A stretch of 55,223 nucleotides of DNA from Candidatus Nanoarchaeia archaeon (GTDB taxonomy: Archaea > Nanobdellota > Nanobdellia > SCGC-AAA011-G17 > GW2011-AR18). Location of the stretch: positions 1 through 55,223 of the forward strand of contig DATDZB010000005.1 in NCBI GenBank assembly GCA_035288845.1, read 5' to 3'. Of the stretch, positions 13,714 through 17,760 are shown one piece after another. Numbering within the stretch: the stretch's first letter is position 1; every line of letters begins with the position of its first letter. Made by a program: the position numbers and the translations under genes. Under the pieces are notes generated by a model, which worked only from the letters and a program-made list of their open reading frames with translations, was not told the origin of the DNA and did not search any database.

Positions 13714-14199
13714 CTAAATTTTTAAGTATTGTTTTATTTCAGTTTTAAAGTTTTTAACAAGATCTTTAGCAAGATTATCTACATAATGTTGTTTATCTCC
13801 AGATACAAGTTTTTCATACATAGCCATAAAAAATCTTTTTGATGCAGACTTTCCCCATTTTTCATCATAATCTCTTTCAACATCAGCTTCAATAGTAATT
13901 TTCAAATCACCATCAATAACTTTACTACCATCAACATATCCCTCTTTAGCATTTTTTATTTCATAAACAATAGTTATTATTGCTCGATTATAATCATCAT
14001 ATTTTCTATCCATTTCCCACTTAATTCTAATATTTTTAATAGCATTGCTGCTTTTATCATCATAATTTTTTTCATTCATATCATAATCATATCTAGTAAA
14101 AAAAGATTTAGCAAGAGAAAAGAATTCTTTAAAATCAAAAACACCGTGGTAATTGATTTCTTCTGGTTTTAGTATTTTTTCTTTGTGTCTGCTAGTCAT
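13714..14199 (-). CDS. Hypothetical protein, paralogue 1 of tandem triplet
   Basis: 161 aa; shares GVFDF..F, EKNY, IKW..RKYDDY and G.L.I...DY..KW pattern with its neighbours. Confidence 0.75.
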   Translation of the reverse strand: MTSRHKEKILKPEEINYHGVFDFKEFFSLAKSFFTRYDYDMNEKNYDDKSSNAIKNIRIKWEMDRKYDDYNRAIITIVYEIKNAKEGYVDGSKVIDGDLKITIEADVERDYDEKWGKSASKRFFMAMYEKLVSGDKQHYVDNLAKDLVKNFKTEIKQYLKI

Positions 14200-14236
14200 A
14201 TAATTACACCTTGAACTTAATTAATAATGGTTTCGG

Positions 14237-14743
14237 TTAAAACCTATGAAGGTTAAGTAAATTTTTAACTTCATCCATAACATTCATAGTATCTTTATAC
14301 GAATCAATTTTAGCTTGTTCAATATTATCAAATAAAACCATTTTTCTATAAATTTTATACATAAGAGTATTTTCATCCCAGCTTTTGTTAGCATTTTCAA
14401 TAATACTAGAATTAAAATGCATTTCAATCTCAGCTTTATGTTTATTTACTTTTTGTCCTTCAACTTCAACTTCAACCTCAGTCAATCCTAGAATTAAATA
14501 AACAATTTCTAATTTTTTTAATATGAAGCCGTCATTTTCTTTTTTACTTGACTGCCAAATAATTTCAACTTGTTTACCATTAGGTTTAATCTTCTCTGCA
14601 TATTTAATCTCTCCACCTACACAAGGATCAGTATACTCCTCATCAACAATCCATTGTCTAAGTTTCTGATAAACTATTTCTAATTCAAAAACACCTTTGA
14701 ATTTTACTTTAGCTCCAGTAATAATTGATTCCTCTTTTGGCAT
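14237..14743 (-). CDS. Hypothetical protein, paralogue 2 of tandem triplet
   Basis: 168 aa; KVKFKGVFEL..VY..L..W, EIKY, EIIW..KK. Confidence 0.75.
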   Translation of the reverse strand: MPKEESIITGAKVKFKGVFELEIVYQKLRQWIVDEEYTDPCVGGEIKYAEKIKPNGKQVEIIWQSSKKENDGFILKKLEIVYLILGLTEVEVEVEGQKVNKHKAEIEMHFNSSIIENANKSWDENTLMYKIYRKMVLFDNIEQAKIDSYKDTMNVMDEVKNLLNLHRF

Positions 14744-14779
14744 TAATATACATTTCTAAAAACTGATTAATAAGTCTTT

Positions 14780-15265
14780 CTAACTATAAAGTTCCAGCTT
14801 GGATTTCACAGAATCATAAAATTCCATTGAAACCATAATTAAAGGAATAGTATATTTATTTTTAATATAATTATCTTTAAACAATCTAAAATACAATTTG
14901 AAAAAGAATACCATTAATTTACTGCCACCATATTTATTTTTATAATCTAAAACAAGTTGTGATTTAATATCACCAACACAATCTCCTTTGTAAAAACCGT
15001 TTTTAAGTTGATTTATATTAAAAAAAAGTAATTCTACAGTAATTATGTACCTTGCAAATGGATCTAAATCTTTAATAATTAAAGATTTGAATTCGTATTT
15101 TCTTCCATATTTATCTGGTTTATTTACATGATCAGATTCAACAAAGTCATAACCCTTTTTATCAGCAAAAGCTTTAGCAGCTTTATAAGCGCCTTCCATA
15201 TCAAATTCTTCATTTACAATTCTAATTCTTCTCTTAAAAACTTCCATTGACTCTGGTTTAGGCAT
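14780..15265 (-). CDS. Hypothetical protein, paralogue 3 of tandem triplet
   Basis: 161 aa; FDM..AY, GYDFVE, KDLDPF, G...LVLDY.NKY. Confidence 0.7.
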   Translation of the reverse strand: MPKPESMEVFKRRIRIVNEEFDMEGAYKAAKAFADKKGYDFVESDHVNKPDKYGRKYEFKSLIIKDLDPFARYIITVELLFFNINQLKNGFYKGDCVGDIKSQLVLDYKNKYGGSKLMVFFFKLYFRLFKDNYIKNKYTIPLIMVSMEFYDSVKSKLELYS

Positions 15266-15347
15266 AATAGAAAAATCATTTAATAGCTTAATAATGTTTT
15301 CTATTTACAAACAAAGCCTTATAAATTTTAGCTTTCATATTTTAAAT

Positions 15348-15998
15348 ATGAATTTAAGAGAACTAAATTTAAAATTAACAAAAGAATCTTTAAAGAAAGA
15401 TATAACTAGAGATGTTCTAATAATCCAAACAATTCATACAATAGATGAATTAATAAAAATAATAAATAAATTAGTAGCAAATTTAAGAGAAAGATATGGT
15501 TACTATGCACCAAGAACATGCAAAACAGAAGATATAAACCAATTACTAGAAGCAGTTGATAAAAAAATAAAAGAAGATATTGCGATTGAAATGAATAAAG
15601 AAGATTTAGCTTCTATTCAAGAATTAGCAGATGAAATAAAAAGTTTAATAAAATTAAAAGAAAGCCAGGAAAAATATTTAGAAATGTTAACAAATAATAT
15701 CTGTCCAAATCTAGCAAAAACAGCTACAGTTGCTATAGCAGCAAGATTAATTTCTCAAGCAGGTTCTTTAAAACATTTAGCAGAATTGCCATCTTCAACT
15801 ATTCAAGTTCTAGGAGCTGAAAAAGCATTATTTAGACATTTAAAAATGAAAGCAAAAGCACCTAAATTTGGTATAATCTTTGCACATCCAGACATAAGTA
15901 AAGCAGCTCCCCAAGATAAAGGAAAAGCAGCTAGAAAAATAGCAAGTGAAATTTCAAAAAATGCGAAAATAGATTACTTTAGAGGTAAAAAATGGTAG
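15348..15998 (+). CDS. nop5: Nop5/Nop56-family box C/D protein, short form
   Basis: IIQTIHTIDEL..IN, LAELPSSTIQVLGAEKALFRHL, PKFGIIF, GKAARKIA; start reset to MNLREL. Confidence 0.92.
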   Translation: MNLRELNLKLTKESLKKDITRDVLIIQTIHTIDELIKIINKLVANLRERYGYYAPRTCKTEDINQLLEAVDKKIKEDIAIEMNKEDLASIQELADEIKSLIKLKESQEKYLEMLTNNICPNLAKTATVAIAARLISQAGSLKHLAELPSSTIQVLGAEKALFRHLKMKAKAPKFGIIFAHPDISKAAPQDKGKAARKIASEISKNAKIDYFRGKKW

Positions 15999-16858
15999 TA
16001 GTAAGTAAACGACTAGGAAGTAACGACACAATCGAAAGTGTTTTAAATAGAAAACCTAGATTAATTTTAGAGGGAAGGGGAAATAGTTCGATGACCGAAG
16101 TAGAGAAAAAATCTGCAAGAAGAAGAAACAGAACCATTAGTAATGAAATTAAAGCTAAACAAATACAAGAATCTGAAATTGGAATAGTTCAAAGAATTTC
16201 TCTAGATGTAATAGTTGATGGTATAGATGGTTCTGGAAAAACAACATTAAACGCAAATTTATACAGCGTTTTAGCAAGAGAAGGAATTCATGTAACAATT
16301 GTAAATGAAAGCGAAGCAGATCCTTTCAGAGAAGGAAGAGATAATTATAGAAAGTTTGGAGTTCCCAATCCAAGAGTATTATTACTAAATAAAATTGCAG
16401 GAAGAAGAGCAGTAATTCTAAATACAAGAGAAGAATTAACAGAACCAGGAATTCGTTTATATGAAAGAGGATATGGAACAACTCTCGCAGAATACTTGAC
16501 AAGTACTGCAAGAAATGGTCACTCATCCTCTAACCAAAGATTCGAAGAAATTAGAAGATTAATAACTGTAATTGAAGGAACATACTTAGTTCCAGACCTG
16601 CATATAATTTTAGATGTAGATCCTGAAAAAGCAGCAGAAAGAATAGCAGAAAGGTATATATCACAAGCAAAAACACCAGAAGCTAGTGAAGGAGCTCAAG
16701 CATTAAGAAGAAAAAGAGAATACTTTTTAGCAATAGCAAAATTCCTTCCAAACGCAACCTATATCGATACTACAGAATTAGGAAAAGAAGAAGTATGCGA
16801 AAGAACATTAAAAGCAATTAGGGGTTCAACTAAATATGCAATGTTAAAAAATAGGTAA
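15992..16858 (+). CDS. Thymidylate-kinase-like P-loop kinase with N-terminal extension
   Basis: DGIDGSGKTT P-loop; PDLHIILDVDPEKAAERI; YIDT; DR motif altered to ERG. Confidence 0.72.
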   Translation: MVVVSKRLGSNDTIESVLNRKPRLILEGRGNSSMTEVEKKSARRRNRTISNEIKAKQIQESEIGIVQRISLDVIVDGIDGSGKTTLNANLYSVLAREGIHVTIVNESEADPFREGRDNYRKFGVPNPRVLLLNKIAGRRAVILNTREELTEPGIRLYERGYGTTLAEYLTSTARNGHSSSNQRFEEIRRLITVIEGTYLVPDLHIILDVDPEKAAERIAERYISQAKTPEASEGAQALRRKREYFLAIAKFLPNATYIDTTELGKEEVCERTLKAIRGSTKYAMLKNR

Positions 16859-16862
16859 AATT

Positions 16863-17576
16863 ATGAAAAGTGATTTAAAAGAAAAAAATTATCAAAATTC
16901 TACATTTTTAGAAACTACAAAATATCAAGGAATTTATCTATTAAATATAAGAAATAGAAAAAAAATAGTAACAAAAAATCTAACTCATGGAAAAATATTC
17001 TTTAATGAAAATAAATATTTAGTAGATAATATTGAGTATAGAGAATTTAATCCTGGTCATTCTAAATTAGCAGCAGCAATAGCAAAAAGAATTTCTTTAA
17101 TACCTATAAAAGAAAAAGATAAAATATTATATTTAGGTGCTTCTCATGGTTATACTCCTTCTTTCATATCTGATATGATAGGAGAAAATGGAATGATATT
17201 TTGTTTAGACTTCGCTCCAAGAGTAGTAAGAGATTTACTTTTTGTATGTGAAGAAAGAATTAATATGTCTCCAATATTAGCAAATGCAAAAAAACCAGAC
17301 ACATATAAAAATAGAATTTCTAAAGTAGATGTTATTTATCAAGATGTAGCACAAAAAGATCAAGTAGAAATATTATTAAAAAATCTAGATTTATTAAATC
17401 CAAAAGGTTATGTTTTAATTGCAATAAAATCAAGAAGTATAGATGTAACAAAAAATCCTAGAATAATTTACAAAGAAGTAGAAGAAAAATTAAAGACAAA
17501 ATTAAGAATAATGGATAAAAAAGAACTTGATCCATATCAAAAAGACCATATTTTCTTTGTATGCCAAAAAAAGTAA
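16863..17576 (+). CDS. flpA: Fibrillarin-like rRNA/tRNA 2'-O-methyltransferase
   Basis: SKLAAAI, LYLGASHGYTPSFISD, VIYQDVAQKDQ, LDPYQKDH. Confidence 0.95.
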   Translation: MKSDLKEKNYQNSTFLETTKYQGIYLLNIRNRKKIVTKNLTHGKIFFNENKYLVDNIEYREFNPGHSKLAAAIAKRISLIPIKEKDKILYLGASHGYTPSFISDMIGENGMIFCLDFAPRVVRDLLFVCEERINMSPILANAKKPDTYKNRISKVDVIYQDVAQKDQVEILLKNLDLLNPKGYVLIAIKSRSIDVTKNPRIIYKEVEEKLKTKLRIMDKKELDPYQKDHIFFVCQKK

Positions 17577-17607: not shown

Positions 17608-17760
17608 ATGAAAGAGGTAATAAAAGAGACTAAAGGAAAAAAGTGTGATTATTGCGACGAAATTGCAATGTTCAAAATCTTACAAGAAGGGTTATATGAA
17701 TATCTTTGTATAACTTGTGTAAAAGATACTGAACAAGCAAAAAAAGAAATAAACAATTAA
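17608..17760 (+). CDS. Small Zn-binding protein (50 aa)
   Basis: MKEVIKETKGKKCDYC...YLCITC; start reset to ATG 17608. Confidence 0.55.
   Translation: MKEVIKETKGKKCDYCDEIAMFKILQEGLYEYLCITCVKDTEQAKKEINN

Follow-up and report, generated by a model that had tools for sequence, protein, structure and literature searches.

The only domain known to hold fibrillarin is the N-terminal domain of Nop5. In the canonical nop5-flpA operon, exemplified by Pyrococcus and Methanocaldococcus (structures 2nnw, 3nmu, 3id5 and 1nt2), the gene for this Nop-domain protein lies co-oriented and directly upstream of flpA, the gene for fibrillarin. A derivative of Nop5 that has lost the N-terminal domain has also been described, namely the eukaryotic protein Prp31 (PMC11213020). 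Here we analyse a stretch of 55,223 nucleotides (nt) from Candidatus Nanoarchaeia archaeon (contig DATDZB010000005.1 of assembly GCA_035288845.1; hereafter the window), in which a gene for a thymidylate kinase (Tmk)-like protein stands between nop5 and flpA. An initial annotation had read this gene as an insertion that split the 3' end of nop5, possibly of an ancestral Nop5-fibrillarin fusion, and that could be excised through 8-bp repeats; if true, this would make the locus a striking example of a split or switchable ribonucleoprotein (RNP) gene. We instead consider it highly probable that the three genes form an old cluster in which the kinase is a fixed member, the repeats are no scars of its arrival, the start of fibrillarin has shifted, and the ends of Nop5 had been lost beforehand.

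A kinase gene fixed between nop5 and flpA

The window is contig C5 of a 14-contig, 556-kilobase assembly that is approximately 70% complete and has a G+C content of 28%. The nearest named relatives of its fibrillarin are from metagenome-assembled genomes (MAGs) of Candidatus Woesearchaeota and Nanoarchaeia. At the locus there are three co-oriented open reading frames (ORFs), nop5, the Tmk-like kinase gene and flpA, which together with the smaller elements discussed below comprise the following features:

15348 to 15998, forward strand: nop5, 216 amino acids from the ATG at 15348 (the longest ORF starts at 15294); PF01798 Nop, E 2.5e-38.
15992 to 16858, forward strand: Tmk-like P-loop kinase paralogue, 288 amino acids as the longest ORF; PF02223, E 8.8e-13.
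16863 to 17576, forward strand: flpA (fibrillarin), 237 amino acids; PF01269, E 3.2e-74.
15983 to 15990, forward strand: copy 1 of the octamer AGGTAAAA, inside nop5.
16853 to 16860, forward strand: copy 2 of AGGTAAAA, covering the end of the kinase gene and part of the spacer.
16041 to 16093, forward strand: candidate promoter and start region of the kinase gene, suggested by reading of the sequence.
16863 to 16901, forward strand: N-terminal extension of fibrillarin, MKSDLKEKNYQNS, 13 codons, delimited by DNA alignment with five relatives and the spacers of 13 relatives.

The flpA product carries a full-length S-adenosylmethionine-dependent methyltransferase domain and scores above the equivalog cut-off for fibrillarin (PF01269, 249 bits; NF003276, 243 bits against a cut-off of 113 bits).

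We searched 60 related genomes with the kinase, the fibrillarin and a profile of the kinase family, and mapped nop5, the kinase gene and flpA on the fetched loci. A Tmk-like ORF of 253–367 amino acids stands between nop5 and flpA in 14 genomes, the window included (genera g1, g3, g4, g5, g7, g10, g11, g14 and g16), and a Tmk-like gene holds the same position on one further metagenome contig. Homologues of the kinase lie just downstream of flpA in two other genomes (G002 and G018) and on another contig in two more (G012 and G015), such that 16 of the 18 genomes with the gene carry it between or next to nop5 and flpA. In 12 genomes, including these last four, nop5 directly abuts or overlaps flpA (genera g2, g6, g8, g12, g13 and g15, and families f7 and f19); the two genes then always form separate ORFs in different frames, in most cases overlapping by 4 nt (ATGA). 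All genomes lacking the insert come from genera or families other than that of the window. When the relatives are compared for an empty site or a fused ORF, those lacking the kinase have separate nop5 and flpA genes, and a fused Nop5-fibrillarin ORF was found in none of the 26 loci. The proposal of an ancestral fusion is thus not borne out, as all 26 relatives have separate ORFs and the fibrillarin extension derives from spacer DNA. Placed on the poorly resolved fibrillarin tree, the state in which the kinase lies between the two genes requires two changes, or possibly only one, against a mean of 9.0 for shuffled states. This distribution indicates that the kinase was fixed between nop5 and flpA before at least nine genera of Woesearchaeota-type archaea diverged.

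The assignment of the intervening ORF as thymidylate-kinase-like is well supported. Its match to PF02223 reaches 48.8 bits (cut-off 27), and an AlphaFold2 model (predicted local distance difference test score (pLDDT) 85; predicted template modelling score 0.81) has Tmk proteins as all of its top 50 Foldseek matches, with a probability of 1.00. These matches include thymidylate kinases from Aquifex, Thermus, S. aureus, E. coli and human; the best is 2pbr (TMt 0.77), and TMt reaches up to 0.79 across them. The profile aligns with Aquifex Tmk over its whole length and the P-loop lysine is kept (DGIDGSGKTT). R156 is the retained Arg of the DR(F) motif, the Asp of which is Glu in the window (ERG) and variable in relatives (TR, SR, NR, HR or DR), and R217, which aligns within the Aquifex ALRRL stretch, is probably the LID arginine. 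An alignment of the intervening ORFs has G77, G82, K83 of the P-loop, R116 and R217 in common.

The same protein scores 45.5 bits against TIGR00041, below the 83.25-bit equivalog cut-off for dTMP (thymidine monophosphate) kinase, and its orthologue from the same genus has no NCBIfam match. Members of the family have 13–46% identity to the window protein. In a library of 1.84 billion representatives only 25 proteins match it at E ≤ 1e-30, and ordinary Tmks of ~200 amino acids appear from ~1e-17. By these comparisons we regard the window kinase as belonging to a small, lineage-restricted subfamily, type A of a fast-evolving, flpA-linked family. The possibility that the linked gene is the housekeeping tmk of the clade was rejected, as relatives encode a separate canonical Tmk of ~205–215 amino acids (215 in G001, ~205 in G013); in the window genome, which is 70% complete, no other Tmk-like gene turned up, and there the linked gene may yet be the housekeeping tmk.

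The longest ORF probably overstates the length of the kinase. Type-A homologues begin at the residue equivalent to the ATG at 16091 (MVNESEKK or MSRKN), residues 1–31 of the longest ORF have a pLDDT below 50, this ATG is preceded by a TATA-like TTTTAAATA (16041–16049) and a Shine-Dalgarno-like GAGGGAAGGGG (16070–16080), and a start there would leave a 92-nt spacer between nop5 and the kinase gene, as in relatives. For these reasons, the true start is probably M34 at 16091, giving a protein of 255 amino acids.

How the arrangement has been maintained is a separate matter. In the kinase tree, type A (support 99/99) comprises G000, G005 and G022, and type B (100/100) comprises G001, G003, G004, G010, G016 and G017; the two types cut across genera g1 and g5 (window 15992–16858 compared with loci L017–L037). 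The kinase of G001, which is of the same genus as the window, is 13% identical to that of the window, against 70% for the fibrillarin. This pattern indicates either replacement of alleles at the locus or sorting of old paralogues. In the former case, the interval between nop5 and flpA would be a hotspot at which divergent Tmk-like alleles are swapped between lineages, and the window kinase would be a secondary arrival. The division of two genera by well-supported types and the discrepancy with G001 speak for such an exchange; however, ancient paralogues with differential loss would give the same pattern, genome G003 has a second copy elsewhere, the branches of the kinase tree are long, the genera are GTDB bins, and the fibrillarin tree is unresolved. 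We therefore hold cassette exchange to be a serious possibility but slightly doubtful, and it is compatible with an old, fixed three-gene cluster, for which it would explain how the arrangement persists.

Extending the search to a wider collection of genome contigs, the kinase protein retrieved no relatives, and the fibrillarin retrieved only distant DPANN and euryarchaeal loci, which were the source of the canonical Nop5 proteins used below. Among the 61 genomes of the order, 30 had no fibrillarin match (E ≤ 1e-5), many of them being more than 95% complete (G027–G060), and the order appears to have repeatedly lost its box C/D machinery. As for the flanks of the cluster, an ORF of ~50 amino acids with two CxxC pairs (CDYC...CITC) lies directly 3' of flpA (17608–17760, forward strand) and has no Pfam match; a similar zinc-ribbon ORF follows flpA in genome G007 (L020, 2154–2366). 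Upstream of nop5 and divergent from it are three tandem ORFs of ~161–168 amino acids (13714–15265, reverse strand), the one tested having no Pfam family.

The ends of Nop5 and the start of fibrillarin

The window Nop5 consists of the Nop domain alone, that is, the coiled-coil and the C-terminal RNA- and L7Ae-binding domain (PF01798, 132 bits). Because it is truncated, its score against the NCBIfam model aNOP56 is 194 bits, below the cut-off of 452. The protein aligns with residues 112–164 and 196–345 of P. furiosus Nop5, with GAEKALFRH conserved, and begins at the equivalent of P. furiosus residue ~103–112, such that the fibrillarin-binding N-terminal domain is missing. Searches of the 70%-complete genome with PF08156 (a weak model), tblastn and an ad hoc hidden Markov model of DPANN N-terminal domains found no such domain elsewhere. 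Canonical DPANN Nop5 proteins, encoded upstream of the distant fibrillarins, have 295–350 amino acids and an N-terminal domain, whereas Nop5 has 210–220 amino acids and lacks the domain in every fibrillarin-bearing relative with a complete nop5 among the fetched loci (L016–L042). The domain is missing independently in a distant Woesearchaeota MAG (L051, 237 amino acids) and a Nanobdellota MAG (L052, 224 amino acids).

The initial annotation was also right that the terminal helix of Nop5 is missing, but this is so in every member of the family (f1). Canonical DPANN Nop5 proteins end in DYFKG-x-(Y/F)-I-G-D-K-L-K-K-E-L-E-E-K-F, and those of P. furiosus and S. solfataricus continue for ~20–30 residues past DYF in the crystallised constructs. 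Within the family, Nop5 runs on for 1–8 residues past D(Y/F)(F/Y) and stops, both where the kinase gene follows and where flpA does. As Nop5 ends in the same way with or without the kinase, the loss of the helix is not tied to the kinase and no piece was split off. The gene-sized insertion therefore stands as a real and ancient event, with the kinase between the genes in 14 genomes and the genes abutting in 12, whereas the accompanying claim that it split the 3' end of nop5 does not.

A second peculiarity of the locus lies at the start of flpA. In a DNA alignment with five relatives, the ACA at 16902–16904 of the window aligns with their flpA ATG, and the 13 codons upstream (16863–16901) align with their non-coding, TATA-containing spacer between the kinase gene and flpA. 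The 119 other close fibrillarin homologues in a collection of 5.8 billion proteins are nearly all 216–226 amino acids long and cover 94% of the query. Four longer homologues were inspected: two of these keep a Met at the canonical start and a third starts a few residues upstream of it, and all three are apparently over-extended ORF calls; in the fourth, the extra length consists of internal and C-terminal residues. The identical 237-residue fibrillarin is found on four contigs, so the extension does not stem from faulty assembly. A recent shift of the start codon in this organism only, by change of ATG to ACA, explains it best.

It was this region that had been said to resemble the terminal helix of Nop5. 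The resemblance can be measured: against a position-specific scoring matrix (PSSM) made from the C-terminal helices of seven canonical DPANN Nop5 proteins, and hence independent of the window, IGKIMKSDLKEKN (from 16851) ranks 25th among the 470,469 stop-free six-frame 13-mers of the genome and second among 556 gene starts. Homology is another matter. Of its 13 residues, the first four are encoded upstream of the ATG and directly after a stop codon, and the D-L-K-E-K part of the match results from translating GATTTAAAAGAAAAA; this is a TATA-like A/T run to which TGATTTAAA in the spacer of another relative is similar. The spacers between the kinase gene and flpA in 13 relatives (26–110 nt) score at most 9.3 and contain stops in the flpA frame, and a score of 18.1 is reached by chance within a K/E-rich helix of a relative's kinase. 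Since relatives have non-coding spacer in place of the matching stretch, the resemblance is most likely a coincidence.

These observations also bear on the idea that the kinase landed in the 3' end of a full-length nop5, between DYF(K/R)G and the terminal helix, and that KIGKIMKSDLKEK, before and at the start of flpA, is the stranded remnant of that helix. The PSSM ranks favour it, as does the position of the match, which sits exactly at the place of a canonical nop5 3' end that overlaps the flpA start. Nevertheless, the kinase-less relatives also lack the helix, their nop5 stop codon overlapping flpA; the spacers of the kinase-bearing relatives hold no match of comparable score; the stretch aligns with non-coding spacer; and survival of an unconstrained 39-nt remnant is implausible after a divergence that took the neighbouring kinase to 13–46% identity. 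We consider such a relic very unlikely.

The 8-bp repeats and a reading of the locus

Direct reading confirmed the repeat and its arithmetic. The octamer AGGTAAAA occurs at 15983–15990 and 16853–16860, a spacing of 870 nt (3 x 290), and nop5 (from 15348) and flpA (from 16863) are in the same frame. Removal of one copy together with the interval yields a stop-free frame of 452 amino acids that joins ...KIDYFRGK to IMKSDLKEKNYQ..., reading ...DYFRGK/IMKSDLKEK... across the deletion junction. Both elements of this arrangement are common by chance. An exact 8-mer shared by the start and stop windows (25 nt around the start, 30 nt around the stop, with crude gene calls) is found in 37 of the 557 genes of the genome (6.6%), which upholds the caveat, made from the outset, that AT-rich octamers arise easily by chance. 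With a one-in-three chance of a common frame, about a dozen genes would be expected to have both brackets and an in-frame join, and that nop5 and flpA share a frame is a coincidence of just these odds. AGGTAAAA itself is found 15 times in the window against 6.3 expected, mostly as GGT-AAA (Gly-Lys) codons within genes, and the 1.4 kilobases around the locus contain at least 25 direct-repeat families and 34 inverted pairs, each of at least 8 nt.

The two copies have ordinary explanations. Copy 1 is part of the codons AGA GGT AAA AAA (R-G-K-K) of the Nop5 tail DYFRGKKW. We had considered both octamers as Shine-Dalgarno sites of the genes that follow them, but softened this view: copy 1 provides a Shine-Dalgarno-like GAGGT at -10 only if the kinase starts at 15992. 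It is best described as Nop5 tail codons, because the start supported by homology is 16091. That start is downstream of copy 1 by 100 nt, and the bracket thereby loses its precision; the statement that the repeats enclose the kinase ORF almost exactly depended on the longest-ORF start. Copy 2 comprises the final sense codon of the kinase gene together with its stop (AGG TAA), followed by AA of an A-rich spacer, and places AGGT at -10 of the flpA ATG. Shine-Dalgarno-like tetramers (GAGG, AGGT, GGAG or GGTG) starting at -16 to -7 are found before 30.5% of operon-internal genes, as against 14.7% of the remaining genes and 6.4% of random sites; their frequency is highest at -14 to -9, and their enrichment ahead of operon-internal genes is 4.7-fold. 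Given this enrichment and the location of the peak, copy 2 is very probably the ribosome-binding site of flpA. The anti-Shine-Dalgarno sequence used here is that generally known from archaea. The octamers are thus ordinary coding and ribosome-binding sequence rather than insertion scars, and it is AT-rich sequence, translation signals and a coincidence of frame that give the false appearance of an excisable fusion.

That the kinase gene is an excisable insertion between target-site-duplication-like repeats, the recombination of which would restore a fusion compensating for the missing Nop5 N-terminal domain, is scarcely credible: the octamers and the in-frame arithmetic are real, but brackets of this kind occur at chance level, neither AGGTAAAA nor any conserved 8-mer is found at both junctions in any of the 13 kinase-bearing relatives (the same-genus G001 included), the insert has neither a transposase nor an integrase gene, its sole ORF being the Tmk-like gene, and lacks terminal inverted repeats at its ends, none of the 26 relatives has a fused ORF, copy 1 may be 100 nt from the real kinase start, and an original duplication would have decayed in an insert shared by at least nine genera with such divergent kinases.

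We therefore return to the three-gene cluster as our preferred reading. Disappearance of Nop5's N-terminal domain and C-terminal helix would have come beforehand, throughout the family and independently of the kinase. A Tmk-like paralogue would then have been fixed between the box C/D RNP genes in an ancestor common to one subclade of this DPANN family of Woesearchaeota type. In the lineage of the window, the flpA start has changed from ATG to ACA, and an in-frame ATG 13 codons upstream, within AT-rich former spacer and promoter DNA, would have been recruited. This would place flpA 4 nt behind the kinase stop, with copy 2 acting as its Shine-Dalgarno-like site, and would have turned a probably leaderless gene with its own promoter into a Shine-Dalgarno-led one; co-transcription of the genes is likewise predicted. 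Three points weigh against this reading. The fibrillarin tree is poorly resolved, and a single origin of the arrangement is allowed by it but unproven; the match of IGKIMKSDLKEKN to the Nop5 helix, which must be called a coincidence, has a p value of ~0.004 among gene starts; and as no rRNA was found in the assembly, including the 3' end of the 16S rRNA, the anti-Shine-Dalgarno sequence is assumed.

Implications and comparison with known systems

What remains most interesting about the locus is the clade-wide loss of the Nop5 N-terminal domain together with the retention of a Tmk-fold gene beside flpA. The former raises the question of how, or whether, fibrillarin joins guide RNPs in reduced DPANN archaea; the latter amounts to a lineage-specific, hypervariable Tmk-like paralogue that interrupts a gene pair ranking among the most conserved in archaea. 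A literature search for Nop5 without the N-terminal domain in DPANN archaea, or for a kinase in a nop5-flpA operon, found nothing relevant. It is conceivable, though unlikely, that the box C/D RNP has co-opted this fast-evolving protein, which has a Tmk fold and a basic N-terminal helix, as a nucleotide-dependent partner. It might, for example, tether or load fibrillarin, and would then not act as a dTMP kinase. Against an obligatory role as adaptor stand genera, such as g13, whose Nop5 is truncated in the same way and which have no linked kinase. In a weaker variant of this idea, the new N-terminus of fibrillarin may mimic the lost terminal helix of Nop5.

Compared with described systems, the kinase resembles Tmk (EC 2.7.4.9; PF02223; Aquifex 2pbr, T. 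thermophilus 5x7j and S. aureus 4dwj) in fold, P-loop GSGKT and motif Arg, and differs from it in a basic N-terminal extension of 35–70 amino acids, a score below the cut-off, extremely fast evolution and a variable Asp in the DRY motif. Short direct repeats that flank a gene-sized segment on either side recall the target-site duplications of insertion sequence (IS) elements and other mobile insertions; here, however, coding and Shine-Dalgarno sequence accounts for the repeat, its frequency is that expected by chance, relatives that have the same insertion lack it, and there is no mobility gene. With eukaryotic Prp31 (2ozb and 3siu; matches in the PDB at E ~1e-11), the window Nop5 shares a Nop domain and coiled-coil without the fibrillarin-binding N-terminal domain, but it is far nearer to archaeal Nop5 (E 2e-40) and is still linked to fibrillarin. 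Lastly, while sister genera keep the 4-nt ATGA overlap usual in the canonical nop5-flpA operon, the subclade described here departs from that operon in the Tmk-like gene of 0.9–1.1 kilobases that intervenes, and in a Nop5 that has neither the N-terminal domain nor the helix that follows DYF.

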